32,000 nt of DNA from Desulfobulbus propionicus DSM 2032 (lineage in GTDB: Bacteria > Desulfobacterota > Desulfobulbia > Desulfobulbales > Desulfobulbaceae). A program made the position numbers and the translations under genes. This document shows positions 6,261 to 31,412 of the stretch, one piece after another (position 1 is the first letter of the stretch; the number at the start of each line of letters is the position of its first letter). Location: contig NC_014972.1 of assembly GCF_000186885.1 (NCBI RefSeq), positions 180,001 through 212,000 on the forward strand, written 5' to 3'. The notes below the pieces were generated by a model. The model had not been told where the DNA came from. It did not search any database and saw only the letters and a program-made list of their open reading frames with translations.

Positions 6261-7822
6261 GGCAGCACCACGATCGGCAGGGTGACCTCGGCACACTCGG
6301 CGGTCACCCAATGGACGGTAATCTCATCGCTGTCCAGGCGGCACAGCTCCAGCCAGGCGCAGCGGTTGAGCGCTTCTGCGGACACAGCCACCGGCAAGGC
6401 GGCGTCCAGGGTCAGCTTTTCCTCGCCGCTGGCCAGGGTCTCCACGCCGAGCACCTTCCGCCGGATGATTGTCCCATCGGTGGTGATCAGTTCAAGGTGC
6501 TGGCGGGCCGCGCTGTCCTTGAGGGCGTACTCGTAACCGATCGGCTGGATGACGATGGACGATGCGCCCGCTTCCGCCGGCACCGAGAGCTCGAACCCCC
6601 GGTCATTGGCGGCCAGCCAGAACGGCGCCAGCCGGCCGCCCCTGGCCTTGAGAAAGGCGAGAAAGGTGTTGATGTCGGCCCGGCCGACCAGCAGGAACCT
6701 GGCATCCCGGCTCAACACCGGCTCCTCGGATTGCACATCGAACTCCAGCACCCCGGTGTCGTTGTCCAGCCGCACCCACTTGTTGTCGTAGCCCTCCTCG
6801 CCATCCTCCCAGCTCGGCACGAACGGACACAGCGGCACATCCAGATACAGCTCCACGGCGCCCCCGGACGGTTCCCAACCGTCGTCCGTGGCCAGCAAGC
6901 TGAGCCGATAATCGCCCACGTCCTCGGTGAACCTACTGACTCGCCGCTGCTCCAGGGAGAGGCAAGAGCGGCACGGCGCCATCCAAGCCAACCCGGCCTG
7001 CCAGTCCCGGCCGAACGGCGCATCCACCGCCAAATAGGTGGCACCCACGCCGGTGATGGTCCGCACCTCGGCGGTCTGCCAATCGGTCCACACCGCCACC
7101 GGCGTACCGATGACGAAATTGTCCGAGCCCTCGGTGATCGGGATGGTGGTGGCCCCGGCGGCAATATCGCCAGTCAGCCGGAACGCATCCCGCCAGATCG
7201 GCGCGAACAGGTACCGGGACTTGCGCATCCCCAGCCAGGTCTCCAGCTGGCGGCGGCCAGCCCCGGACACCAGCATCCGCACCTCCCAAGTACGCCGAGG
7301 CAGGGTACGCAACTGGACCCGCTGCTCGGTGCGGTCATGGGCAATCATCACATCCGTTTTCCAGGCCAGCGACTCATCCAGCCCGTTCTCCCAGTTGTGC
7401 GGGAAGAACAGATAGCCGATGTCGCCGGAGAGCTGCGGCGGCCGGGTGCCAAGGATGGTCCACAGCGGATCGTTTGTGGCCGTGGTCAAAAAGCTGAACA
7501 GGGCCTCGAAGATGGCCGGGCCTTCGGAGTCGACCGAGACAACGATCCTCTGGCTTGTGTGTGGCGCGATGGTCGCCGGAGTGGTCAGGTCAAGGCCGAT
7601 CCCCTCCACCTGGCCCGAGGCGTTAATTGCCGACACGGTCCGGGCAACGCTCTCGCCGTTGTGCAGATACACCGGAAACGCCTGATCCTTGGACACCAGC
7701 CCCATATCAAACCGTTCCGGCCGGATGTACCGGGTGAACAGCGCCGTCTCCAGGTTGGTTGTCCTGGCGCTCAACCCGGACAACGGCACCATGGACATTT
7801 GCATGATTGTTCCTACCGGCAT
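6257..7822 (-). CDS. Minor tail / distal-tail or tip-complex protein
   Basis: 521 aa, immediately upstream of the gpL-like gene and coupled to it. No motif recognised with certainty. Called by synteny. Confidence 0.45.
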   Translation of the reverse strand: MPVGTIMQMSMVPLSGLSARTTNLETALFTRYIRPERFDMGLVSKDQAFPVYLHNGESVARTVSAINASGQVEGIGLDLTTPATIAPHTSQRIVVSVDSEGPAIFEALFSFLTTATNDPLWTILGTRPPQLSGDIGYLFFPHNWENGLDESLAWKTDVMIAHDRTEQRVQLRTLPRRTWEVRMLVSGAGRRQLETWLGMRKSRYLFAPIWRDAFRLTGDIAAGATTIPITEGSDNFVIGTPVAVWTDWQTAEVRTITGVGATYLAVDAPFGRDWQAGLAWMAPCRSCLSLEQRRVSRFTEDVGDYRLSLLATDDGWEPSGGAVELYLDVPLCPFVPSWEDGEEGYDNKWVRLDNDTGVLEFDVQSEEPVLSRDARFLLVGRADINTFLAFLKARGGRLAPFWLAANDRGFELSVPAEAGASSIVIQPIGYEYALKDSAARQHLELITTDGTIIRRKVLGVETLASGEEKLTLDAALPVAVSAEALNRCAWLELCRLDSDEITVHWVTAECAEVTLPIVVLP

Positions 7823-21330: not shown

Positions 21331-22089
21331 TTATCGGTTGACGTCCATTGAAACGTCCATAATCCAGTATACTCCGCCGATCTTCCGCAAGGTGTAGCCC
21401 AGGTTGCGCAGCTCGGCGCCCAGCTGTCGCGGTTGTTTTTTTTCTCCATGGCCAACAAGATCGGCCAGCCAGCGGTTGATGGCCTCGACCGCCCGCGACA
21501 GCCGCACCCGCTCGCCGGGTGCGGCGGCAAGGCACTGCTGGCAGAAGTCGCGCACCAGCGTGTCGGCCAGGGACGAGGCGGGGTGCTCAAGCTCGGCAAT
21601 CATATCGGCGAGATCGATCCCGGTCACGCGCTGCAGCACTCGCAGCGAGGTGGAGGTCGGCCGCAACACCACCTTGGTCAGGTCAAGCTGATAGCGAATA
21701 TCAAGCCCGCCGGGAGAGACCGGGCCGCGATGGTAAAAGATGTCGGTCTTGCGGCCGCCGTCGTCCTGGCTGTAGCTGCCGGTCTTGCGGATGGAGGGGA
21801 GGACCTCTTCGTAGATCCAGGCCTCAAACTTTTCCGCAGCCGGGAGCTTTGAGTGAGCGACCAGGCGGTAGAGGTTCGGCTCGTTGATGATACGAATTTC
21901 CTGGATACCTCCAGCTGTTCGAAGGGGGTAGTGTTTCACGACCCCCTTGCAATGTCTTGAAATCGCATCTTTTGTGTTGGCATATCCCAACAATTCGGCC
22001 ACGTCCTTGGCTACAAACCAGGGGGCATTATCGATGGTCAGGGTCCGGACCATTGAATCGTTGAAACAGAAGGGGGTAATTTCAGGCAT
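21331..22089 (-). CDS. Bro-N domain protein (antirepressor-like), copy 1
   Basis: 252 aa from MPEITPFCFNDSMVRTLTIDNAPWFVAKDVAELLGYANTKDA (Bro-N motif). The C-terminus (LGAELRNLGYTLRKIGGVYWI) looks like a winged helix. Paralog of 28238..29029. Confidence 0.75.
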   Translation of the reverse strand: MPEITPFCFNDSMVRTLTIDNAPWFVAKDVAELLGYANTKDAISRHCKGVVKHYPLRTAGGIQEIRIINEPNLYRLVAHSKLPAAEKFEAWIYEEVLPSIRKTGSYSQDDGGRKTDIFYHRGPVSPGGLDIRYQLDLTKVVLRPTSTSLRVLQRVTGIDLADMIAELEHPASSLADTLVRDFCQQCLAAAPGERVRLSRAVEAINRWLADLVGHGEKKQPRQLGAELRNLGYTLRKIGGVYWIMDVSMDVNR

Positions 22090-22399
22090 GGTGGTCCTCC
22101 AACTGGGCAATGACCATAGCCAGGGAGCGGGCAATGACGCCACGAGGGCCGACCATGTCGGAGGTTTCCTTGAGATGGGTGCAAAGATAATCGAGCGTGG
22201 CCAGAGCGCCGTGCGCGGCGATGCCGGTGCGTAGCTCGGCATTTAATCGCTTTCGGGCTGCGGGCAACTGCTCCCTGGCCTCGGCAACCAGGTGGCGCAG
22301 CAGCGGGTTGGGGTGGCGGCGGGAGTCGTGTTCAGGAAAGGACGGCGGGGCGGGAATGGCGGCGGGTCTGCGCCCGCCCTTGATCAGGGTGAGATGCAT
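22082..22399 (-). CDS. Conserved small protein (MHLTL..GGR family), copy 1
   Basis: 105 aa from the ATG at 22399 (GGAG upstream). Shares MHLTL.KGGR, DSRRHP.P, LVA.AREQLP, LD.LC.HL and IAQLEDHHA with 27891..28238. Overlaps the next gene by 8 nt. Confidence 0.6.
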   Translation of the reverse strand: MHLTLIKGGRRPAAIPAPPSFPEHDSRRHPNPLLRHLVAEAREQLPAARKRLNAELRTGIAAHGALATLDYLCTHLKETSDMVGPRGVIARSLAMVIAQLEDHHA

Positions 22400-22704
22400 G
22401 GTGGTGCTCCGTGAGATGAGGTTGACCACCCCTGCGCTGCTAAACGCAAAAAGGGCGGCGATATGCGGGTTAGCAGACCGGCCTCACGGAACCGGCAGGG
22501 GTTCCCCCCTCCCGCACACCACCACCCAAGCAAGAGCAATGCTGTGCTGTGGACGCAAAAAAACCGCCAAAATGAAACCTGACGTTACTAAAAGTAAAGT
22601 CAAGTGCAAGGCGGGGCATCCGCCGCGAGGTTCGGGCTGCTAAACCCGGCCACGGATTTTGCCGTGACAGCTTGAGCATTGCACACCCCACCAAACTCTG
22701 TCAA
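22400..22704 (-). promoter_or_regulatory. Structured leader, copy 1 (promoter-like element, hairpins with 8-nt loop UUUAGCAG, GGCGG/CCGCC alternative pairing, U7 terminator-like element)
   Basis: Minus strand: TTGACA (22704-22699)-N18-AATGCT; CGGG-UUUAGCAG-CCCG (22633-22648); GGCGG-N5-CCGCC (22610-22624); GGCGG-U7 (22557-22568); CUGCUAAC (22469-22476); hairpin with loop UUUAGCAG (22429-22455). Confidence 0.55.
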
Positions 22705-22712
22705 TCTTTTTC

Positions 22713-22928
22713 TCAACATGGTTGCCTCCATAATCGTTCGTGTTCATGGTCGCCATCCCGCCGAAGGCAAGAATGGCCTGCATGAACCCGGATAGACGGG
22801 GAGTTCATATGTGTAGAGTTTATCACGGCCAAAACGGGATTTTCCTCGAAAAAACAGCCAATAGTCAGCGTGATAGGATCGAGGGGCAGAGGATACGGTT
22901 TCATGCTATCCAGGGTCGTCTCTGTCAT
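22713..22928 (-). CDS. Hypothetical 71-aa ORF (weak call)
   Basis: ATG start with a weak RBS in an AT-rich island. An antisense 64-aa ORF is equally open. Confidence 0.2.
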   Translation of the reverse strand: MTETTLDSMKPYPLPLDPITLTIGCFFEENPVLAVINSTHMNSPSIRVHAGHSCLRRDGDHEHERLWRQPC

Positions 22929-23120
22929 CGTTGATCCCCATGAAACGATTTTTCAACATTTTATGTTGGTCTGTTTTCGCATCACTTCCCCAAAACAATT
23001 GACACCCACCCCATCCTGTGGGCACAATGAAACGATATTTACAGGAAAAATATGGGCACAATAGGGAGATGAAGGTGTGGTTTGACCTCTGTGCATTGCC
23101 TTGATAACAAGGAGTATATC
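22929..23120 (+). promoter_or_regulatory. Intergenic control region with paired decamers around a promoter-like element
   Basis: TTGACA (22999-23004)-N18-CACAAT. TGGGCACAAT at 23019-23028 and 23053-23062. ATGAAACGAT at 22940-22949 and 23027-23036. Confidence 0.35.
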
Positions 23121-23288
23121 ATGAACAATGGAAACGGATTTACCACCCAGGACGCAGGAACTGATTCCTCAAGGAGTTCGACACCACAAACCATAGATGT
23201 TCCGTCAGTCAATCCCGGGACAAACTCCACCCCTCAGAATGCAGGCGATACAGGAGGGGCACCACCCCCTCCTGTGGATGACGACTGA
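23121..23288 (+). CDS. 55-aa acidic, low-complexity (S/T/P/N/G/D-rich) protein
   Basis: Strong AAGGAG RBS 7 nt before the ATG. MNNGNGFTTQDAGTDSSRSSTPQTIDVPSVNPGTNSTPQNAGDTGGAPPPPVDDD. Convergent with the membrane-protein gene. Confidence 0.45.
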   Translation: MNNGNGFTTQDAGTDSSRSSTPQTIDVPSVNPGTNSTPQNAGDTGGAPPPPVDDD

Positions 23289-23298
23289 GTTGTGGCAA

Positions 23299-23946
23299 CT
23301 ATCTTTTCTTTTTAAAACGGATCATCACTCTTGAAATTTCGCTGGCAGGCACATAGGTCAACCTATCTCCCCAATCGGCATCGCGCACTGTTGTCATTTC
23401 TTTTGTCGTCCCATCGGTTTTTCTGATGGATGTTACATACAAAGCTATGTTGCCATCGTTATCTGTATAATATTTCGGAAAGGCGGCATCCCCGAACGAT
23501 TGAACATTATTGCATATCAGAGCGGATCCGTCCTTCAACAGCACCTTGACCTGCGTTGGCCCCGCGTGCGTACATTGAGTGATTCCAGTCCATACATTTG
23601 GTATACCGTCTTCATTGAGCACACCTGCATTTTGGAAAATGGTATTTGTCAACGGCTTACCGACTTTTCTCCACAAACAAGAAATGACGACCACGGAAAC
23701 AACTGCAATAATTGCCGGTATCAAAAAATACGAAAAAAAGGGTTTCACAAGATCAAAGGCGACATACCCGAAGAGACCGAACACTATGATTCCGTAGAGC
23801 AGTTCGTCTTTTCGCTCCTTGTCCCGCAATCCGGATCTCGCTATGGAATGACCGATATAACCGGTTGCGATCACAATTTGAATATACTCGGGCAGGTTTA
23901 GTAAATTTTCAATGTCGTTCATAATCCACTCCAGATACCCAGTCAT
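23299..23946 (-). CDS. Membrane protein: three N-terminal TM segments plus a C-terminal soluble domain of about 110 aa. Accessory (moron-like) gene.
   Basis: 215 aa, markedly AT-rich versus the phage core. TM candidates are YIQIVIATGYIGHSIA, LLYGIIVFGLFGYVAFDLV and FLIPAIIAVVSVVVISCLW. Confidence 0.65.
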   Translation of the reverse strand: MTGYLEWIMNDIENLLNLPEYIQIVIATGYIGHSIARSGLRDKERKDELLYGIIVFGLFGYVAFDLVKPFFSYFLIPAIIAVVSVVVISCLWRKVGKPLTNTIFQNAGVLNEDGIPNVWTGITQCTHAGPTQVKVLLKDGSALICNNVQSFGDAAFPKYYTDNDGNIALYVTSIRKTDGTTKEMTTVRDADWGDRLTYVPASEISRVMIRFKKKR

Positions 23947-23982
23947 TTTTTTCAGTTAGGATGCCCATCTCTCCACGCTACG

Positions 23983-24105
23983 ATGGAAAGCACCACTGAA
24001 CCATCATACACAAGGAGAAGAGCAATGGGAAAAGAGGAACTCTAACTGCTGGACAAGATTCTCGGTATGTACTCACGGCTGCTCCAACCACTCGGGAACA
24101 TAAGC
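23983..24105 (+). pseudogene. Truncated copy of the 5' part of plus-strand ORF 30458..30820 (in-frame TAA after MGKEEL)
   Basis: ATGGGAAAAGAGGAACTCTAACTGCTGGACAAGATTCTCGGTATGTACTCACGGCTG aligns with 30510-30566. Most differences fall on third codon positions of the plus-strand frame. Confidence 0.4.
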
Positions 24106-24174
24106 GACCTTTAACCGCACAGCCGCCTTGCTGGTGAAACCAATGGGCAGGAGGATGAAACCGTCCTTGGTCAT
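24073..24174 (-). CDS. Possible 33-aa ORF, ATGA-coupled to the HTH gene
   Basis: MTKDGFILLPIGFTSKAAVRLKVAYVPEWLEQP. The tail resembles the C-terminus (GGFVPDWMKP) of ORF 30557..31039. Confidence 0.25.
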   Translation of the reverse strand: MTKDGFILLPIGFTSKAAVRLKVAYVPEWLEQP

Positions 24175-24401
24175 CTGCCCTCAAGATTTACCACCGACGT
24201 ATGAGCGCCTGCATACAATCGTCGTTGCCAGCTAGCCAGAGCCTCCTTGTCGGCGCAGATACGGGCCCCAGGCCGCTCCTGGTACACCGGCATATCGCTA
24301 TGGTCTTCCATCCAACCCCGCACGGTTCGTTCGGAGACGCGCAAAAACGCGGCTACTTCCTTCATCCCGATCAACACCGCCTCATTCTCGCTCATCGCCA
24401 T
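24171..24401 (-). CDS. AlpA/excisionase-type (HTH_17-like) DNA-binding protein
   Basis: About 76 aa from MAMSENEAVLIGMKEVAAFLRVSERTVRGWMEDHSDMPVY (HTH). GAGGAGGA RBS inside the end of the upstream ORF. Confidence 0.6.
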   Translation of the reverse strand: MAMSENEAVLIGMKEVAAFLRVSERTVRGWMEDHSDMPVYQERPGARICADKEALASWQRRLYAGAHTSVVNLEGR

Positions 24402-24975
24402 CCTCCTCTGTCTGTTCGAACTCACCGGCATCGATGCGCATGCCGGACAATTCACCGTAGGCCCGGTTGATCACCAATTCCAAAATCTTGTCCGCCACCA
24501 ACGGTCCCTGGTGGTAGTCCCCACCGGCCTCGAGGACAATCTCGGTGGCCGCAATGCGGGTAAAATGCTCAAGATTGCCGCGGAGCATGTTGTATCCGGC
24601 AAGCAGCTGCGCCCAGTGGTCCTCGATTCGCATCCATCCACGATCTTCCGCCCTGGCCTTGATGGCAAGGCGGTCGACCTCGAGTTCCAGCTTGCGCAAC
24701 TCAAGCCGGTCTTTTTCCTGTTTCCTGTCGACCAGGTCAAGATCGACCACGGGTGCTTCCCCCATGGCCTTCAGCAAATATTCGGCCACCGATGCCCGCG
24801 AAACGCTCTTGTCGGGAAAGACGAGATACTTGCCGGCAACGCCGTCGTCGTAGAACTTGCGCTGCGACAGGGCCACGCCCCTGCCCCTGAGCTGTTCCCC
24901 TACCCAGCGCCAGGCGGCTGATCGGTTTTTGAACCTTTCCCGCGGTTGACCGGCCACAGTATCATCAATGGCCAT
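24382..24975 (-). CDS. Hypothetical protein with a central coiled coil (architecture loosely Nu1/small-terminase-like, unproven)
   Basis: 197 aa. DRKQEKDRLELRKLELEVDRLAIKARAEDRG is followed by a helical region and an acidic tail. No confident family match from memory. Confidence 0.5.
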   Translation of the reverse strand: MAIDDTVAGQPRERFKNRSAAWRWVGEQLRGRGVALSQRKFYDDGVAGKYLVFPDKSVSRASVAEYLLKAMGEAPVVDLDLVDRKQEKDRLELRKLELEVDRLAIKARAEDRGWMRIEDHWAQLLAGYNMLRGNLEHFTRIAATEIVLEAGGDYHQGPLVADKILELVINRAYGELSGMRIDAGEFEQTEEDGDERE

Positions 24976-25083
24976 GATCAGCGGTTATCCCGGACAGTTC
25001 TGGTTGCTTTTTGCAGGGCTCTTGCCCGGGTCTTGATTCCTGCCATATAATCCTGGCCAAGGTCGATCGTGCCCAGCCGTCCT

Positions 25084-25302
25084 TTACGCGTCGCCGACAA
25101 TGAAATCTGGATTGGTTGCCTTGATTGCAACCGTACAACATTTTTCCCCATCGATTTGTCTCCTTGTCTTCCAGGCTAGTTCCGTTTCAACCAATCGCTT
25201 TTCACATTCGGGACAAAGGCTGCCATCACCCTCATGGTCAACGATTCCAACAGTCGATAATCGTCCACACCCGGCACAGAGAATTTGTATGGTTCCTTTC
25301 AT
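25084..25302 (-). CDS. Small zinc-ribbon protein
   Basis: 72 aa, CAGCG...CPEC (CxxC-N19-CxxC). ATGA-coupled. Confidence 0.5.
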   Translation of the reverse strand: MKGTIQILCAGCGRLSTVGIVDHEGDGSLCPECEKRLVETELAWKTRRQIDGEKCCTVAIKATNPDFIVGDA

Positions 25303-26249
25303 GCTTCCCGGTGAACAATGCCCACCTGCCCCTGGAGAATCTTGAGGGCAAAGTCGGCCAGCTGATCGCGGATGAGGTCATGCTCAAAACTACTTTCCAT
25401 AACAAGCCCAGACGTTGGGACTTTTTCCCACCCTTCCAGATCCTCAAGGCGTTTCTCCAGTTCGGACACCCGATTGGCGAGGACCGTGCTTTCAGCAGTC
25501 AGCCGCTCAGCGTTTTGTAGGAGGGTGGTTTTTTCAGCCTCTAGGCCGGAAAACGTTTCCGTCACCATTTCTGGTACCAAGGCCACATCGCAGGCTCCGT
25601 CGAAACCGGAATCAAGGCTTTCGCCAATTTTCAGAAGAAATGACCAATATTGATCAGCCTCCTCGGCCCGTTTTTTCCTCAATTCTTGCTCTTCGATAAG
25701 CTGGCCGCTCAGCGTTTGAACCTCTGCAGCCAGTTCGTCGCATCGTCGCGCCAGTTCCTGCTTCTCTTCATCAACGGAACCCGCGGCTGGCAGGCAGTGC
25801 GGCAGCATCTTGCGCAAGGCCTTTTCCACCGCTTCCGGCCGGTTGGCCATGGCGCCAAAGAGGTTGCCACAACTGGTACAAACGAGATCGCCATGCAATC
25901 TGGTGAGGGTCATGTTTTCGCGTCCGCAGTTTTCGCATGTTCCGTCGTGTTTTTTTCCGCCCATTTCCAGCTCCCTTTTGCATTGTGCCGAGCCACGCTC
26001 GGTCTTCAAAATTTCCAGGTCCACCACCTGTAGCTCAGGTGGCCTTTCTTTCCCCAGGCATTGCAGACAACGGCTCAGCCGGACCGCCGCCAGGGGTAAT
26101 CCATCGCTGTTTTTCACCGCCTCATGGGCCTGTGCCAGTGCTTCCGCACAGGCCTGGGCGAAGCCGTGCTCCGTCATCCGCACCGGCAGCCCCCTTGTGA
26201 CCGGGCAGACGGCCCGCACTTCAATGTCGTTACGCACCGCCTCAGACAT
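25299..26249 (-). CDS. Zinc-ribbon plus coiled-coil protein, unknown function
   Basis: 316 aa. CENCG...CTSCG ribbon, then long heptad regions (EEKQELARRCDELAAEVQTLSGQLIEEQELRKKRAEE). Overlaps its neighbours by 8 and 4 nt. Confidence 0.55.
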   Translation of the reverse strand: MSEAVRNDIEVRAVCPVTRGLPVRMTEHGFAQACAEALAQAHEAVKNSDGLPLAAVRLSRCLQCLGKERPPELQVVDLEILKTERGSAQCKRELEMGGKKHDGTCENCGRENMTLTRLHGDLVCTSCGNLFGAMANRPEAVEKALRKMLPHCLPAAGSVDEEKQELARRCDELAAEVQTLSGQLIEEQELRKKRAEEADQYWSFLLKIGESLDSGFDGACDVALVPEMVTETFSGLEAEKTTLLQNAERLTAESTVLANRVSELEKRLEDLEGWEKVPTSGLVMESSFEHDLIRDQLADFALKILQGQVGIVHREA

Positions 26250-26454
26250 ACACCGGCCCCATGCCGACCTCGATAAACGCTTCGTTGAGCACCGCCATCG
26301 GTGAGCGGTGCGTCATGTGCCATCCGCCGCAGGCGGGACATTGATAGGGTTTGACCCGCACGCCCTTGCGGTTGAGTTCGATGGCCCGGCGGGTTGCCGC
26401 TTCCCGGCTGGCGTATCGTTTCTTGTCCCGGCAGGATTTCTTGATTTTCGTCAT
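26242..26454 (-). CDS. Small zinc-ribbon protein
   Basis: 70 aa. MTKIKKSCRDKKRYASREAATRRAIELNRKGVRVKPYQCPACGGWHMTHR. Starts 1 nt after the primase stop. The remainder of the 242-aa track ORF overlaps the primase and is rejected. Confidence 0.5.
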   Translation of the reverse strand: MTKIKKSCRDKKRYASREAATRRAIELNRKGVRVKPYQCPACGGWHMTHRSPMAVLNEAFIEVGMGPVYV

Positions 26455-26455
26455 G

Positions 26456-27898
26456 TTACGCCGCATCGGTGACCTCGCTTTGCAGTTGTATAAGCGCGTC
26501 AGCGCCAATGTATCGACCGCGCGGGAGCCGCTCCAGGAAATCGGCCACCGCACCGCCGCCGTACATGATCCGGGTGATTTGCCCACGCCGCATAAACGCA
26601 TCCAGGGTGTCCGCATCGCGCCGGAACCGAACCACCAGCTCACCATGGGGAGCGCGCCCGTACCACACCGCACCGGATTCAGTGCGCAGCAGTTCGGCAA
26701 AGGCCTCGATATCGTCCAGGGGCAGCGCTGAAGAGGGGAAGAAATCTCCACCCCCATTCCCCGGCGAGCGCTGCTCAGGGGACAAGGAGCGGTCCTGGCA
26801 AATGGGCGGGGGGCAGGCCACCACTGGCGGCAGGCCGGATTCCACCCACTGGCGCAGGTCGCCGCCATGGTCGCGGACAAAATCCCCCGGGTCCTTGCCG
26901 GCCGGCATCGGCCAGAACCGCGCTTGGCGGAAACTCCGGCGCCACCGCTTGACCGCGGCCGGGCCGGCACCCAGCTTGCCGTCCCTGGCCGGATCCGCGT
27001 CCAGGGCCACCAGGATCACGGGGCACTCTTCCAGCTCGGCCCGCAGGCCGGCATCAATCCCGCCGGCCACCGTGCCCAGGGCCACCACCAGCACCTCCCC
27101 GTGGGCAGCGGCCACGGCCATGGCATCCAGTTCGGCCTCGACGATCACCGCCCCGCGAATCGAACCGGAAGGCCGCAACACCATGGGCAGGTTGCCGCTG
27201 CCCTTGATCCACACATACTTGCGGTCGGACAAAAACTTCTCCCGCGCCGCCGGCGTCCTCCGGATCCGCAACCGATGCAGTTCGCCATGGCCATCAAAAA
27301 TCGGAATCACCAGCCCGCCGGGCACCCACAACCGTTCCTTGCCTTCCTCGAGCGGCAAGCCCAGCTCGCGTCGATCCACCCGCAGGTCATGCGCCAGCCA
27401 CCCCAGTTGGTATTGATCGACCTGGGCGGTGCCGATGCCACGGCTCTCCAGCCAGCGGATCTCCTCCGGTTCCCTGGTCAAGGCCTGCCGGGCCTTCTCC
27501 ACCAGCTTCCCGGCCCAGGCGCTCCATGCGCTCCCCGGATGGGCGGCGGTCAGCTCGGCAAGGCCGTCCGGCCTGCCACCAACCTGCGGTCGCACCGACC
27601 GGGGCCGTCGTTTCACCGGTTCGCCGTTGCGGCACGGGCCGTAGTTCGGGCAGGAAGGGGAACAATCCTTGCCCTCGGCATCGTGGGCCTCACGGCAGCT
27701 CATGCCATCCATCTCCCGCAGCCACTTGATGCGATCGCCCTTGAAGCCGCAGGCAAAGCAGCGAAATCCACCATCGGTAAACAGCACGAACTTGTCCGAG
27801 TCCTTTGAACCGCCGCACTTTGGGCACGGGCCGGTATGCCGGTTGCCGCTCTTGCGCAGGCCATGCTTGGCTGCTATTTCGTGATTGGCGCTATGCAT
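26456..27898 (-). CDS. DNA primase (zinc finger + TOPRIM) with an uncharacterised C-terminal domain
   Basis: About 480 aa from MHSANHEI. CPKCGG...CFACGFKGD zinc finger. TOPRIM-like VIVEAELDAM and VALDADPARDG. Confidence 0.8.
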   Translation of the reverse strand: MHSANHEIAAKHGLRKSGNRHTGPCPKCGGSKDSDKFVLFTDGGFRCFACGFKGDRIKWLREMDGMSCREAHDAEGKDCSPSCPNYGPCRNGEPVKRRPRSVRPQVGGRPDGLAELTAAHPGSAWSAWAGKLVEKARQALTREPEEIRWLESRGIGTAQVDQYQLGWLAHDLRVDRRELGLPLEEGKERLWVPGGLVIPIFDGHGELHRLRIRRTPAAREKFLSDRKYVWIKGSGNLPMVLRPSGSIRGAVIVEAELDAMAVAAAHGEVLVVALGTVAGGIDAGLRAELEECPVILVALDADPARDGKLGAGPAAVKRWRRSFRQARFWPMPAGKDPGDFVRDHGGDLRQWVESGLPPVVACPPPICQDRSLSPEQRSPGNGGGDFFPSSALPLDDIEAFAELLRTESGAVWYGRAPHGELVVRFRRDADTLDAFMRRGQITRIMYGGGAVADFLERLPRGRYIGADALIQLQSEVTDAA

Positions 27899-28238
27899 GA
27901 CGGTCCTCCAGCTGCGCGACAATCTTGGCGAGGCCATGGGCCATGTCGGTACGATGCCCGACCAGGTCTTTGAAGAGATTGAGGTGGTTGCAGAGGTGGT
28001 CCAGGATCGCCAGTATTCCGTCGACCGCGAGCAATCGGCATTCCCTGTCGCTGAGGCTTCGCTGCGCCTGAGGCAGTTGTTCCCTGGCCATGGCTACCAA
28101 CTGTTGCACCATAGGGCTGGGGTGGCGCCGCGAATCGGTATTTGCAGCAAAAGAGGCGAAAGAGTGGGCAACGGCGGTCTTTCTGCCGCCGGGTACGAGG
28201 GTGAGGTGCATATTCTGATGCAAGACCGACCGTTCCAT
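27891..28238 (-). CDS. Conserved small protein (MHLTL..GGR family), copy 2
   Basis: 115 aa from the TGATG-coupled ATG at 28238 (or 106 aa from MHLTLVPGGRK at 28211). Paralog of 22082..22399. Overlaps the primase start by 8 nt. Confidence 0.6.
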   Translation of the reverse strand: MERSVLHQNMHLTLVPGGRKTAVAHSFASFAANTDSRRHPSPMVQQLVAMAREQLPQAQRSLSDRECRLLAVDGILAILDHLCNHLNLFKDLVGHRTDMAHGLAKIVAQLEDRHA

Positions 28239-29029
28239 CACGCCACCTCCCGCACCGTCAGACCAAACACCTGGATACGGCCGCCGACCTTGGCCAGGGT
28301 GTAGCCGAGGTCGCGCAGCCTTGCGGCCAGCTCCCGGCTGGTGGCGATATTGACTTGGTTGAGGCCGTGGTCCAGGCACCATTGCCGGTACGCCCGGTGC
28401 ATTTCGGCCAGGGTCAGGCGGGGTGCCGGGTCCGGCACGGCCCGGGTGCAATCGTTGAGGAATCCGTCCAGCGAGGTTTCGACCTCCCGGCCGGGGGTGA
28501 TATGAAGGGCGTCCTCCACCAGATCGTCCATCTCGATGCCGGTCAGCCGTTGCAGCAGGGTGAGCGAGGTCCTGGTGGGCCGGGTGAGGATCTTGGTCAG
28601 GTCCAGGGTGTAGCGGATGTCGAGACCGGAGTCGGACACCGGGCCACGGTGGTGGAAGATGTCGGCGCGCTTGCCCTGGTTGGGCAGGGCGTAGCCGCCG
28701 GTCTTGCGGATCGAGGGGAGTACCTCGGCGGTGACCCATTTACGGAAGGGTTTGGCCTGGGGTTTGTTGGAACGGATGATCAGGGTGTAGAGGCCGGATT
28801 CGGAGATGATGAGCATGTTGCGCGTCTGACCTGCTCCGGCTATTTGCCGGACCAGCTTCTCATCATCATCGAGAAATTGGGTCGCGTCACTTGCGTCGGC
28901 ATACTCCAATACATCGCAAACATCCCTGGCGACAAACCAGGGATCGCCATCAATGGTCAGGGCACGAATTTCGTTGGACTCGAACTGGAAGGGGATTACT
29001 GCGGATGGACTACTGGCGGGACTGCTCAT
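28238..29029 (-). CDS. Bro-N domain protein (antirepressor-like), copy 2
   Basis: 263 aa from the ATG at 29029 (GGAGG RBS). IPFQFESNEIRALTIDGDPWFVARDVCDVLEY (Bro-N). Central IFHHRGPVSDSGLDIRYTLDLTK and C-terminal YRQWCLDHG...LRDLGYTLAKVGG are shared with copy 1. Confidence 0.75.
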   Translation of the reverse strand: MSSPASSPSAVIPFQFESNEIRALTIDGDPWFVARDVCDVLEYADASDATQFLDDDEKLVRQIAGAGQTRNMLIISESGLYTLIIRSNKPQAKPFRKWVTAEVLPSIRKTGGYALPNQGKRADIFHHRGPVSDSGLDIRYTLDLTKILTRPTRTSLTLLQRLTGIEMDDLVEDALHITPGREVETSLDGFLNDCTRAVPDPAPRLTLAEMHRAYRQWCLDHGLNQVNIATSRELAARLRDLGYTLAKVGGRIQVFGLTVREVA

Positions 29030-29320
29030 GGCGTTACCTCCGTACAAAAAGGATTTTGACGCCCATTTCCGCTGTCAAACGGAAAAAGGGCGAACACTGT
29101 GCGGGTTGACAGACCGGTGTACGGACCGGCAGGGGTTGCCCCCTCCCACACAGCGCCGCCCAAACAAGAGAGCTTCGCCATGGTGTGGACGCAAAAAAAC
29201 CGCCGAATATGAGACTGGTGGCGGTGCGTCCGCCGTACAATCAGGCTGTCAAACCCGAGCCGCTGGATTTTGCCAGCGACGCCGTTATAATAGCCTGAAA
29301 AGATTTTTTTTGTCAACGAT
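29030..29320 (-). promoter_or_regulatory. Structured leader, copy 2 (sigma70-like promoter, hairpins with 8-nt loop UUUGACAG, GGCGG/CCGCC alternative pairing, U7 terminator-like element)
   Basis: Minus strand: TTGACA (29316-29311)-N18-TATTAT (29292-29287); CGGG-UUUGACAG-CCUG (29242-29257); GGCGG-ACGCA-CCGCC (29220-29234); GGCGG-U7 (29193-29204); CUGUCAAC (29105-29112); hairpin CGCCC/UUUCCG-UUUGACAG-CGGAAA/GGGCG (29060-29092). Confidence 0.6.
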
Positions 29321-29332
29321 ACAAAATAAAGG

Positions 29333-29794
29333 ATGGTAATAATCATGGGATACAGGGAGCTTACCGAAGTGGAATTCGACAGGATCGGAAAAACGGTCAG
29401 GACTATAACTGAAGCAAAGAAGTGGTTTGTATCGTACTTGGTTGAAAACAGGATATGCTCAGAAGAAACGGCTAAAAATAGTGCCGATGAAATACCGTAT
29501 GATTTTGAGACTGAAATTGAAAATTTAAGATTTGAAATTGATGAAGAGAAGGAAAGTTTAAGAGAAGCAAAGGCTGATTTGGCAGAAGCAAAGAGGTTGT
29601 TGAAAAAATGCAAAACAAACAAGGATAAGGAGGACGCTGCTCTTGATGTAAAAGATGCAGAAGAGGATATTGAAGAAATAAAAAAGCAAATAAGTGCGAT
29701 AAAAAGCGATATAGCAAGTCTGAAAGCTGACAAAAAGTACTTCTTGATATCATTTACGAACAGACACATTTCATACATAGAAAGAAAAAAATGA
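29333..29794 (+). CDS. Charged coiled-coil protein, AT-rich accessory gene
   Basis: 153 aa (or 149 aa from the ATG at 29345). EIENLRFEIDEEKESLREAKADLAEAKRLLKK...EEDIEEIKKQISAIKSDIASLKADKK. Transcribed divergently from the leader-2 promoter. Confidence 0.55.
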   Translation: MVIIMGYRELTEVEFDRIGKTVRTITEAKKWFVSYLVENRICSEETAKNSADEIPYDFETEIENLRFEIDEEKESLREAKADLAEAKRLLKKCKTNKDKEDAALDVKDAEEDIEEIKKQISAIKSDIASLKADKKYFLISFTNRHISYIERKK

Positions 29795-29952
29795 CTAAAA
29801 ATTTCAGCGGTGTACTCGGTGATCCAGCTGGCGGTTTGCAAGCACTTTTTCTTGTTGATCCAGGCAACCGGTTGAATCTCCGACGCGATTGCGGTACCGT
29901 GGTGACGCCAATCAACCAACAGCGACCAACCATCACGCCGGAGGTGTACCGT

Positions 29953-30369
29953 ATGTCCATAAATCCACTGAAACTTCTTGAAGATTTGATCAACGAGCAT
30001 GGCAGCAGCTCAATCCTTAGAGAGCGGTTGCTTCTTGTTAAAGATGAACTTGGCAAGGTCGAAAAAGAACGTGCTGATTTGCAGCGACAACTCGCCGAGG
30101 CGATGGAAAAACTTCGCTATCTTCGCGAAGAAGTGAAGAAAAAAAGTGTTCCCGAGAACTTTACCGAATATCGCGGGGCACTGTTCAAACGAGACGTGTC
30201 GGGTCGGCACGCCCCACTTGCCCATTGCCCCGAGTGTAAGCGGCCACTTGTGAACACAGACCCGTGCGTGTTTCCGTATAATTGCACCACACCTGGATGC
30301 CGATACGAGGTAACCATCAAGGAAGATCTTGAGCTTATTGCGCAAAGGCTTGATCATATAGCCTCCTGA
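29953..30369 (+). CDS. Coiled-coil plus C-terminal 4-Cys zinc-ribbon protein, accessory gene
   Basis: 138 aa from MSINPLKLL (GGAGG 8 nt upstream). CPECKRP...CTTPGC. The frame is also open from an ATGA-coupled ATG at 29791, through a GC-richer 150-bp patch. Confidence 0.5.
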   Translation: MSINPLKLLEDLINEHGSSSILRERLLLVKDELGKVEKERADLQRQLAEAMEKLRYLREEVKKKSVPENFTEYRGALFKRDVSGRHAPLAHCPECKRPLVNTDPCVFPYNCTTPGCRYEVTIKEDLELIAQRLDHIAS

Positions 30370-30820: not shown

Positions 30821-31039
30821 ACGTTGGTAGTAGGGCGTAGTTCGGTAATCCACCACTTTCCCATGTTGGTCTGGGAAGAATCGGACCACGTTTTTTCTCT
30901 GGTAATCGATGATGCTTTTCAACCGCCAACTTGCCCAGGCCAGGGAATCGGCTACACTGCACCGGCAGGGGTGAAATTCTTTGAGGTAGCCTTTACAGGA
31001 AAATGTTGATAACCCGGCTCGATCCATCATTTGTTCCAT
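30557..31039 (-). CDS. Hypothetical 160-aa protein
   Basis: Uninterrupted ORF with AGAGGGA 8 nt before the fourth codon (ATG). No family recognised. Overlaps plus ORF 30458..30820 in the complementary codon register, so one of the two is probably a shadow. Confidence 0.45.
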   Translation of the reverse strand: MEQMMDRAGLSTFSCKGYLKEFHPCRCSVADSLAWASWRLKSIIDYQRKNVVRFFPDQHGKVVDYRTTPYYQRLSRIIEFAEIAFQHPDGVVCPQLVLLRAVAEGWPGGECSAETALQLVDVLKHIGAVEGDPLPKIAQLALDRLQGHIAGGFVPDWMKP

Positions 31040-31104
31040 CCCCTCTTGCTTGCGTGTTTCATTGGCTCCAGCCGATCCAGCAGGTGGATCACACGTTCTT
31101 TTTC

Positions 31105-31133
31105 TTGATAAAGCTAATAAACGTTACTACATT
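31105..31133 (+). promoter_or_regulatory. Promoter-like element placed for a leaderless brnT mRNA
   Basis: TTGATA (31105-31110)-N17-TACATT (31128-31133). The brnT ATG begins 7 nt after the -10 and there is no SD. Confidence 0.4.
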
Positions 31134-31139
31134 AAATGC

Positions 31140-31412
31140 ATGGACATTGAATTCGACCAGGACAAACGCGACATCACCTTGCGTGAGCGCGGACTCGATT
31201 TTGCCGATGCCGCCGAGGTGTTTGCCGGCGTCTCTGTCACCATCCCGGACATCCGGCGCGATTATGGCGAACAGCGCAACGCGACCGTTGGCATGCTTGG
31301 TGAGCGGGTTGTGGTCCTGGTCTGGACACCACGCGGTGATAAACGCCGCATTATCTCCATGAGGTATGCCAATGAGCGCGAAAGGAAAAAATTCGCCGGA
31401 CGCCTGGGTTGA
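31140..31412 (+). CDS. brnT: BrnT-family (DUF497) ribonuclease toxin
   Basis: 90 aa. MDIEFDQDKRDITLRERGLDFADAAEVF...RRDYGEQRNATVGMLGERVVVLVWTPRGDKRRIISMRYANERERK matches the BrnT pattern. Overlaps the antitoxin gene. Confidence 0.8.
   Translation: MDIEFDQDKRDITLRERGLDFADAAEVFAGVSVTIPDIRRDYGEQRNATVGMLGERVVVLVWTPRGDKRRIISMRYANERERKKFAGRLG

Follow-up and report, generated by a model that had tools for sequence, protein, structure and literature searches.

Two leaders before antirepressor operons

The window analysed here is the 32,000-nucleotide (nt) stretch of Desulfobulbus propionicus DSM 2032 at positions 180,001 to 212,000 of contig NC_014972.1. It contains two similar leaders, each preceding an operon that encodes a Bro-N antirepressor. 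Both are read on the minus strand, which is the sense strand for the downstream genes, and they are referred to here as copy 2 (29316-29027) and copy 1 (22704-22397). Each leader is very probably a complete antisense-RNA immunity cassette of the IsrK-C4 type (as in P1 immI and P4 CI). On the minus strand, the 5' part consists of a promoter, a hairpin with a GCAAAAUC loop, a hairpin that carries the a1 target, a single-stranded b1 target, and an anti-terminator hairpin that shares its 3' arm with a terminator ending in seven U residues (U7). The 3' part continues with a c4 RNA of about 75 nt, an a2 hairpin, a b2 target over the Shine-Dalgarno (SD) sequence and the first open reading frame (ORF).

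The likeness of the two copies is far beyond chance. A global alignment of copy 2 (290 nt) with copy 1 (308 nt) has 213 identical residues among 268 aligned positions (79.5%), with a score at 22.5 standard deviations over 200 shuffles, which bears out the match of 29060-29320 to 22429-22704 reported in an earlier note on this DNA. In an independent repeat search, the blocks that hold c4 and the terminator come up as direct repeats (D1 87%, D2 87%, D3 82%). The best-conserved stretch of both copies is the structured RNA of about 75 nt that lies 3' of the U-tract.

Both leaders begin with a promoter-like sequence, as the earlier note had described:

29287-29316, minus strand: copy 2 sigma70-type promoter, TTGACA at 29316-29311, an 18-nt spacer and TATTAT at 29292-29287 (promoter scan 11/12)
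22675-22704, minus strand: copy 1 promoter-like site, TTGACA at 22704-22699, an 18-nt spacer and AATGCT at 22680-22675 (sequence read directly)

The copy 2 promoter aligns with the P1 promoter P1c4/P51b (TTGACC-17-TATAGT), and the -10 hexamer of copy 1 has a TG one base upstream. A 14-nt repeat similar to ATGAAACGATTTTT occurs at 22940-22953, 23027-23040 and 29295-29308. The first two occurrences are 240-330 base pairs (bp) upstream of copy 1, and the third falls between the -35 and -10 hexamers of copy 2. The repeat could be an operator for a protein repressor; none was identified in the window among the ORF translations scanned.

The first genes behind the leaders are as follows, with lengths in amino acids (aa):

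28238-29029, minus strand: ant-2, Bro-N antirepressor, 263 aa (Pfam Bro-N, 1.4e-25; PHROG 130 anti-repressor Ant, 1.3e-51)
22082-22399, minus strand: ORF105, leader ORF, 105 aa (MHLTL...), positional analog of P1 icd
21331-22089, minus strand: ant-1, Bro-N antirepressor, 252 aa from the ATG at 22089 (Bro-N, 2.1e-23)

Directly behind copy 2 comes ant-2, followed by a 115-aa ORF and primase, and the copy 1 operon has the order ORF105, ant-1, terminase, portal and head genes. The two antirepressors are 42% identical over their full length. The stop codon of ORF105 overlaps the ant-1 start (AUGCCUGA, ATGCCTGA). ORF105 has no family match in protein-family scans (Pfam, PHROG), and we rejected it as an Icd homolog because it has no significant similarity to P1 Icd. 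The earlier note had concluded from the different first genes, Bro-N in one case and a small ORF in the other, that the leader alone is conserved. This contrast is misleading, because Bro-N antirepressor paralogs are encoded in both operons, in copy 1 behind an inserted, icd-like coupled ORF. Judged from the sequences, the conserved unit is the whole c4 cassette plus ant.

The c4 antisense RNAs

Rfam scans covered the whole window at the gathering threshold and positions 22300-29500 at E<=1. The gathering scores are 45 bits for C4 (RF01695), 46.7 for c4-a1b1 (RF03163) and 50 for IsrK (RF01394). Each leader contains one C4 match:

22450-22532, minus strand: c4-1 antisense RNA, Rfam C4 54.1 bits, core helix 22527-22453; recognition elements b' loop UUCCGUGAGG at 22491-22482 and a' CUGCUAA at 22476-22470
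29085-29166, minus strand: c4-2 antisense RNA, Rfam C4 45.7 bits, core helix 29161-29088; recognition elements b' loop UCCGUACA at 29125-29118 and a' CUGUCAA at 29112-29106

The predicted folds of both RNAs (c4-1, -50.9 kcal/mol, z -5.7; c4-2, -48.0 kcal/mol, z -4.6) form the three-way structure of the family and match its consensus. In each of them a' is the 3' junction strand and b' is the loop of hairpin 2. This c4 structure is taken from the Rfam model alignments. When RNAalifold was applied to a MAFFT alignment of 23 c4 sequences, the long closing stem was not recovered, because the loop lengths vary and the arms fall out of register.

The same scans place the a1/b1 module and the terminator. 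The c4-a1b1 model matches copy 1 at 22681-22629 with 52.4 bits, which is above its threshold, and sub-threshold isrK matches in both copies extend from the first hairpin through the U-tract. By these matches, the GGCGG-U7 element of the earlier note is probably an IsrK-type terminator and the region 3' of GCGUCCACA is a c4 RNA. The motifs that the note had listed are all present. What it overlooked is the c4 RNA itself and the complementarity of its a' and b' elements to a1/b1 and a2/b2.

A frame of 45 codons that starts with TTG (29026-29163, minus strand) crosses c4-2 and a2/b2, and its UGA overlaps the ant-2 AUG (AUGA). Its length and overlap are those of 'orf45' in Gifsy-1. No Shine-Dalgarno sequence is visible, and the equivalent frame of copy 1 is closed by a UAA within a'. 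The resemblance to orf45 is probably a coincidence.

Targets and pairing specificity

The upstream module of each leader presents a1 in a hairpin loop and b1 in a single strand:

29259-29280, minus strand: copy 2 5' hairpin 1, GUCGCUGG-CAAAAU-CCAGCGGC, which opens the IsrK/c4-a1b1 module and appears in the predicted fold
22649-22668, minus strand: copy 1 5' hairpin 1, GUCACGG-CAAAAU-CCGUGGC (Rfam c4-a1b1)
29242-29257, minus strand: copy 2 a1 hairpin, with loop a1 UUGACAG at 29252-29246, a perfect 7-bp complement of a' CUGUCAA
22633-22648, minus strand: copy 1 a1 hairpin, with loop a1 UUAGCAG at 22643-22637
29233-29239, minus strand: copy 2 b1 target UGUACGG, 7 contiguous bp with the c4-2 loop b'
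22623-22630, minus strand: copy 1 b1 target CCUCGCGG, 8 bp (1 G-U) with the c4-1 loop, -14.9 kcal/mol

The loop of hairpin 1 is kept in all homologs, and a1 of copy 2 has the position and sequence of the annotated a1 of P1. Downstream of c4, a second pair of targets leads into the first gene:

29067-29084, minus strand: copy 2 a2 hairpin, with loop a2 UUGACAG at 29078-29072 (fold and pairing)
22432-22449, minus strand: copy 1 a2 hairpin, with loop a2 UUAGCAG at 22443-22437
29037-29046, minus strand: copy 2 b2 target UGUACGGA at 29046-29039, 8 contiguous bp with b', -12.3 kcal/mol
22406-22416, minus strand: copy 1 b2 target UCUCACGGAGC, 11 bp (2 G-U) with b', -19.2 kcal/mol

In copy 2, b2 overlaps the Shine-Dalgarno sequence GGAGG (29041-29037) ahead of the AUG at 29029, and in copy 1 it overlaps GGAG (22410-22407) ahead of the AUG at 22399. 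The run of U residues that follows c4 is paired in the a2 hairpin, whose stem is UUUCCG/CGGAAA (29027-29084 and 22397-22449, minus strand). The SD and b2 are enclosed by a further predicted stem with compensatory differences between the copies (copy 2, GGCGU/ACGCC; copy 1, GGUGGU/ACCACC). This stem may keep the ribosome-binding site covered in advance.

The two cassettes carry different alleles of the recognition elements:

Copy 2: a' CUGUCAA; a1/a2 UUGACAG; b' UCCGUACA; b1 UGUACGG; b2 UGUACGGA
Copy 1: a' CUGCUAA; a1/a2 UUAGCAG; b' UUCCGUGAGG; b1 CCUCGCGG; b2 UCUCACGGAGC

Thus c4-1 and c4-2 differ in both a' and b', and all four targets of each cassette carry the matching changes. Computed on the single-stranded recognition elements alone, cognate pairing of a' involves 7 bp (-8.4 / -8.5 kcal/mol) versus 3-5 bp for cross pairing (-2.5 to -5.3 kcal/mol). 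For b', the cognate duplexes have 7-11 bp (-10.9 to -19.2 kcal/mol) and the cross duplexes 4-7 bp (-5.6 to -8.4 kcal/mol). In an alignment of P1, P7 and D6, P1 and P7 differ by exactly the two a' alleles of the window and by 2-3 nt in b', and their gaps between cognate and cross energies are similar to those of the window cassettes. The heteroimmunity of P1 and P7 acts through c4 (review). Because a' and b' differ and the targets match, the two cassettes of the window should act independently, as do heteroimmune P1 and P7.

Sequences of the a site are absent elsewhere in the window, except at the -35 hexamer of copy 1. This hexamer and one further base (22698-22704, minus strand) read TTGACAG, which is identical to the a target of the copy 2/P1 type. 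A transcript that enters copy 1 from upstream would include it.

Terminator and competing folds

Between b1 and c4, each leader contains three arms that can pair in alternative ways, together with a flanking helix:

29220-29234, minus strand: copy 2 anti-terminator hairpin GGCGG-ACGCA-CCGCC, in the minimum free energy (MFE) fold of the leader up to the U-tract
22610-22624, minus strand: copy 1 anti-terminator hairpin GGCGG-AUGCC-CCGCC (predicted folds)
29193-29224, minus strand: copy 2 IsrK-type terminator, CCGCC, 15-nt loop, GGCGG and U7 at 29199-29193 (isrK alignment)
22557-22614, minus strand: copy 1 terminator, CCGCC, 41-nt loop, GGCGG and U7 at 22563-22557 (isrK model and folds)
29187-29231, minus strand: copy 2 outer helix, GGACGC at 29231-29226 with GCGUCC at 29192-29187, enclosing the terminator and U-tract
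22551-22621, minus strand: copy 1 outer helix, GGAUGC at 22621-22616 with GCGUCC at 22556-22551 (sequence read directly)

All of these motifs, namely GGCGG-N5-CCGCC, the spacers of 15 and 41 nt, GGCGG-U7 and the complementarity of GGACGC/GGAUGC to GCGUCC, are as the earlier note stated. The downstream GGCGG and its U7 span 29204-29193 in copy 2 and 22568-22557 in copy 1, and GCGTCCACA follows directly 3' of the U-tract in both. The longer terminator loop of copy 1 contains an inner CUUGAC/GUCAGG stem. In copy 2, the final two G residues of b1 are also the first two nucleotides of the GGCGG anti-terminator arm. Because GCGUCC is transcribed only after the U-tract, the outer helix is possible only in read-through RNA. 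The MFE of the 102-nt copy 2 leader (z -3.5) includes this helix, whose function may be RNA processing, either instead or in addition.

Up to the U-tract, the MFE of copy 2 (-11.6 kcal/mol) contains the GGCGG/CCGCC hairpin. The same RNA reaches -8.2 kcal/mol when the terminator is forced versus -9.3 kcal/mol when the 3' arm of the terminator is blocked, and its MFE contains the terminator when b1 is masked. In copy 1, the terminator stem was assigned by hand in constrained folding. The earlier note had taken termination to be the default; these folds instead favor the anti-terminator or make the two states equal (-11.6 versus -8.2 kcal/mol in copy 2).

Conservation across homologous leaders

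Viral contigs with related leaders were retrieved with a pattern made of the first-hairpin loop and the a1 hairpin. Among the 123 hits, 114 have an exact reverse complement of their own a1 7-mer (that is, an a' element) downstream, and 106 have an a2 copy as well. The 81 unique leaders were reduced to 37 representatives that are less than 80% similar to each other and that include P1 and both window copies. We set aside a MAFFT alignment of the region from b1 to the terminator, in which the arms stood in different registers because of their variable loop lengths, in favor of alignment-free permutation tests of cognate versus non-cognate complementarity.

The alternative pairing of CCGCC with an upstream or a downstream GGCGG, which the earlier note had proposed, is conserved across these homologs. 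In the RNA that precedes the 3' arm of the terminator, a hairpin that starts right after b1 ties up the terminator 5' arm, partly or completely, in 36/37 representatives. The three arms covary, with GGCGG/CCGCC/GGCGG in the window, UGCGG/CCGCA/UGCGG in P1, and also GGCGC/GCGCC/GGCGC and GCGGC/GCCGC/GCGGC. Anti-terminator complementarity averages -7.71 kcal/mol for cognate versus -6.15 kcal/mol for non-cognate arms, and 0/5000 permutations reach the observed value. The note's complementarity of GGACGC with GCGUCC likewise belongs to a helix that covaries: between the bases just 5' of the terminator and those just 3' of the U-tract, the energies are -7.26 (cognate) versus -4.71 kcal/mol (non-cognate; 0/5000 permutations). 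The three-arm arrangement and flanking helix are also found, with compensating substitutions, in P1, P7, D6, P4 and a Bordetella phage. The mutually exclusive pairings and the outer helix are conserved features of the family.

The recognition elements behave in the same way, with complementarity scores for cognate versus non-cognate pairs of 7.8 versus 4.8 (b'/b1) and 9.1 versus 5.8 (b'/b2). In 31/36 representatives, b1 shares 0-4 nt (mode 2) at its 3' end with the start of the anti-terminator arm. In free leaders the terminator is part of the MFE in only 9/37 cases, and the mean difference in free energy between the folds (ddG) is -0.01 kcal/mol, so that on average the two states are isoenergetic. 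Masking b1 as if it were paired with c4 brings the terminator into the MFE in 37/37 cases (mean ddG -5.44 kcal/mol), as compared with 17/37 for a control mask shifted 3 nt upstream and 14/37 for a mask trimmed by 4 nt. A U-tract of at least 5 residues is retained in 73/81 unique leaders.

Two cassettes on one element occur elsewhere too. Viral contig L039 has two tandem cassettes 854 bp apart with different a'/b', each before a paralogous gene that starts with MATTPTQTQPEVLLVEG. Contig L091 has cassettes at 6558 and 8306, 1.75 kb apart, with an identical a1/b1/terminator module (a1 UUAGCAC) and c4 a' elements that differ (AGGUCAA and GUGCUAA). Because a1 of its first cassette matches the c4 of the second and not its own, cross-wiring between the two is suggested.

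Few further relatives came from searches seeded with the window. The only match of the leaders to phages by blastn is Bordetella phage vB_BaM-IFTN8 (locus L241), which has an unannotated c4 cassette (OM293957, 29844-30100) upstream of an annotated antirepressor. It shares the b' core CCGUAC and b1/b2 GUACGG with copy 2 of the window and has a different a' (ACUGCAA); a truncated Burkholderiales-2 RNA match lies at the edge of this locus. A scan of genome contigs for the GGCGGTTTTTTTGNGTCC pattern listed 120 loci, 2 of which are real cassettes, in metagenome-assembled genomes (MAGs) of Electrothrix and Thermodesulfobacteriota; the remaining loci are chance terminators. A search for contigs that encode ant-2 returned a single 1.6-kb Logan contig.

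Comparison with known systems

The order of elements in the window is that of the immI regions of P1, P7 and D6 (a1 b1 - c4 - a2 b2 - icd - ant1/2). In P1, promoter P51b is followed by a hairpin with a GCAAAUUC loop, a1 TTGACAG, b1, the terminator arms, c4, a2 TTGACAG, b2 over the SD, icd and ant. The arms of the P1 leader (UGCGG-ACAA-CCGCA ... UGCGG-UAUUUUU-GUGUCCG) are accompanied by a helix that forms after the U-tract (CGGACA/UGUCCG), as in the window, and P1 c4 likewise has a' (CUGUCAA) in a junction strand and b' in the loop of hairpin 2. The 5' end of P1 c4 is processed by RNase P. The a1/a2 sequence is TTGACAG in P1, D6 and copy 2, and it is TTAGCAG in P7 and copy 1. Copy 1 resembles P1 in having a small ORF coupled to ant, whereas copy 2 has no leader ORF. 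The window cassettes differ from all three phages in their b' sequences, in the U5 that follows c4 in place of CCACC, and in ORF105, which is not an Icd homolog. They also occur twice in one genome, and the phage is unrelated to P1.

Satellite P4, whose immunity region (seqA - CI RNA/seqB - seqC) controls the alpha (primase) operon, has a C4 match of 74.9 bits in its CI region and an isrK match of 60.8 bits in its seqA region, with leader arms like those of the window. Termination in P4 is Rho-dependent. Both its alpha operon and the copy 2 operon include primase, although the P4 cassette does not stand before an Ant gene. The P4 CI RNA works in antisense and, by way of seqA and seqC, brings about premature termination (PMC4825925). 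[quoted passage not shown] The window would share with Gifsy-1 a short a1/b1 RNA, a leaky intrinsic terminator and a downstream RNA of about 80 nt. The antirepressor gene of Gifsy-1 has an AUGA-coupled upstream ORF, which the 45-codon TTG frame of copy 2, ending in AUGA, resembles. The systems differ in that the isrK matches of the window are sub-threshold and that IsrK has been presented, with no reference to c4, as activating a structured mRNA. An 'IsrK-C4 immunity system' has been recognised in P4, P1, P7, N15 and lambdoid prophages, with the role and mechanism of the IsrK-like part called unclear (PMC3632133).

Two further systems are similar in logic to parts of the cassette. The first is found in plasmids pT181, pIP501 and pAMbeta1, where an antisense RNA on the nascent leader prevents formation of an anti-terminator, so that an intrinsic terminator forms. 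This resembles the proposed c4-b1 attenuation without being homologous to it. The plasmid antisense RNAs are transcribed in cis from the opposite strand and are fully complementary, whereas c4 comes from the same strand, farther downstream, and recognises its target by two short elements. The second is the sar RNA of P22, a cis-antisense transcript that blocks translation of the antirepressor (ant) mRNA. Unlike c4, it is not a member of the c4 family and does not have bipartite a/b recognition.

Proposed mechanism and alternatives

The steps established in the homologs would also apply to both window leaders. Some transcripts would end at the U-tract to give a short a1/b1 RNA, the analog of IsrK and seqA, and read-through transcripts would be processed to free c4. 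By pairing with a2/b2, c4 would keep the first ORF (ant-2, or ORF105 with its coupled ant-1) from being translated, which would silence the operon, and the short a1/b1 RNA could titrate c4. In this way copy 2 would gate ant-2, the 115-aa ORF and primase, and copy 1 would gate ORF105, ant-1, terminase and the head genes.

A second role for c4, which the masking calculations bring up, is plausible at somewhat below an even likelihood. Because b1 overlaps the first nucleotides (about 2) of the anti-terminator arm, pairing of c4 with a1/b1 on the nascent leader would free CCGCC for the terminator, giving c4-dependent attenuation as a form of autoregulation. From the same overlap we infer that c4, and not an N/Q-type protein, flips the leader toward termination. 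The default state would then be read-through, and c4 would raise termination in its own leader, which combines negative autoregulation with release of the a1/b1 decoy. On the predicted folds, read-through is probably the default, a polarity opposite to that in the earlier note. Termination driven by c4 fits the logic of P4 and a speculation in the IsrK paper (PMC4825925).

Several observations weigh against the identification of complete IsrK-C4 cassettes or against the attenuation step. The C4 score of c4-2 is barely over the Rfam threshold (45.7 versus 45 bits). The c4-a1b1 match of copy 2 (29293-29238, 36.8 bits, E 1.3e-6) is sub-threshold, with both hairpins present. The isrK matches of copy 1 (22668-22557, 45.3 bits, 42-nt insertion in the terminator loop) and copy 2 (29279-29193, 36.8 bits, 16-nt insertion) also fall below their threshold, because of the long terminator loops. 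The copy 1 promoter is weak and was not called by the promoter scan. The terminator stem has only 5 bp around a loop of 15 or 41 nt, and a simple terminator scan calls this stem in neither copy; its sole call in copy 1 is a different stem, of 7 bp, with the same GGCG and U-tract at its end. Both c4 copies end in GCCC-UUUUU, whereas enterobacterial members have a CCACC tail, and with this difference RNase P-type processing may differ too. The case for attenuation is built from thermodynamic masking and the overlap of about 2 nt, and a duplex next to the hairpin might stack on it and leave it intact. The IsrK effect in Gifsy-1 was not lessened by constitutive STnc1160, which is the c4 homolog (S14 Fig, PMC4825925).

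This last result also bears on the alternative that comes closest, in which the leaders are IsrK-C4 modules with a constitutive, c4-independent terminator that sets the ratio of decoy to read-through RNA, and in which the upstream hairpin tunes its leakiness. Gifsy-1 provides a precedent for a leaky terminator with trans-activation by the short RNA (PMC4825925), and constitutive STnc1160 gave no sign of more termination. Partial termination by itself would also follow from a ddG near 0 between the folds in free RNA. A terminator of this kind does not account for the overlap of b1 with the anti-terminator arm in 31/36 representatives, for the finding that only the full b1 mask converts all 37 leaders to the terminator fold, or for P4 CI, which promotes premature termination through seqA. 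We regard the constitutive terminator as a possible arrangement, one that we would not bet on.

In another arrangement, the anti-terminator/terminator/outer-helix region would serve RNA processing or stability, for example as a nuclease entry site that separates a1/b1 from the c4 precursor. The outer helix is confined to read-through RNA yet shows strong covariation, and processed isrK-orf45' and species of about 80 nt are known in Gifsy-1 (PMC4825925), as such a role would predict. It leaves unexplained why the upstream arm copies the 3' arm of the terminator and why b1 abuts it, and a U-tract of five or more residues would not be expected to persist so widely among the leaders. A processing role in place of attenuation is therefore unlikely.

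The earlier note had offered a stand-alone attenuator, with a terminator overcome by a lambda N/Q-type protein, a ligand or an alternative fold, and with the terminator gate as the conserved unit. Its terminator-like element and mutually exclusive hairpin are real, and the reading survives to the extent of a leaky intrinsic terminator with a competing hairpin. Its polarity is probably the reverse of the actual one, and its N/Q-type factor and leader-only conserved unit are not supported. The best-conserved part is a c4 RNA with matching targets, free-RNA folds favor read-through, and the homologous systems are controlled by RNA. No N/Q-type antiterminator family was found among the 27 distinct ORF translations scanned, which are part of the ORFs of the window. 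The whole-window Rfam scan at the gathering threshold gave C4-clan matches only and the E<=1 scan of 22300-29500 added isrK only, with no nut/qut-type RNA; neither scan contained a riboswitch, aptamer or other cis-regulatory family. Antitermination of the N/Q type is thus not borne out, and the likely trans factor is the c4 RNA from the same leader. Of the options in the note, its mention of a riboregulator fits best. As a whole, the stand-alone attenuator is very improbable. It is just as hard to see either copy as a decaying, functionless duplicate, since copy 1, the candidate by its poor promoter without a scan call, has higher Rfam scores than copy 2, its own a'/b' with matching changes in a1, a2, b1 and b2, an intact ORF105-ant-1 coupled pair, and, with all genes in the same direction, a possible source of transcription upstream.

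Neighboring sequences

A 324-aa ORF (29026-30000, minus strand) runs across the whole copy 2 leader without a family match and is most likely spurious. The divergent plus-strand ORFs at 29333-29794 and 29791-30369 look like real neighbors, although they have no significant family match. Farther along the plus strand, 31366-31674 matches BrnA_antitoxin (PF14384, 1.8e-22) and phrog_4692. The ORF before it (31003-31362, plus strand) has no family match and would be the toxin of a BrnT/BrnA-like pair by position only. The large terminase subunit (TerL) is at most 27% identical to that of any cultured phage (tblastn against phages), so the phage has no close cultured relative.

Significance

The IsrK-C4 system is already known and has Rfam families, and unannotated copies are common, as in IFTN8 and the two MAGs. 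New here are a distant member, two orthogonal cassettes that head a replication operon and a packaging/head operon, and a family-wide model for a1/b1. Identifying the cassettes makes it possible to annotate, in an otherwise uncharacterised phage, two RNA genes so far missing from its annotation, together with their targets and two antirepressor operons. With recognition alleles like those of the heteroimmune P1/P7 pair in one genome, the window is a natural example of orthogonal RNA repressors in one phage.

The comparison of homologs gives a1/b1 a concrete and testable function, which is c4-dependent attenuation via the overlap of b1 with the anti-terminator. We tentatively extend this to a general proposal, which we consider possible and less than probable, that a1/b1 (seqA/IsrK) is the sensor of an antisense-driven attenuator across the c4/CI family and that two orthogonal switches of this kind gate the replication and packaging/head operons of the window. 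If this is true, the two switches may give a full-size temperate phage an immunity with two checkpoints that is largely RNA-based and follows a P4-like logic.

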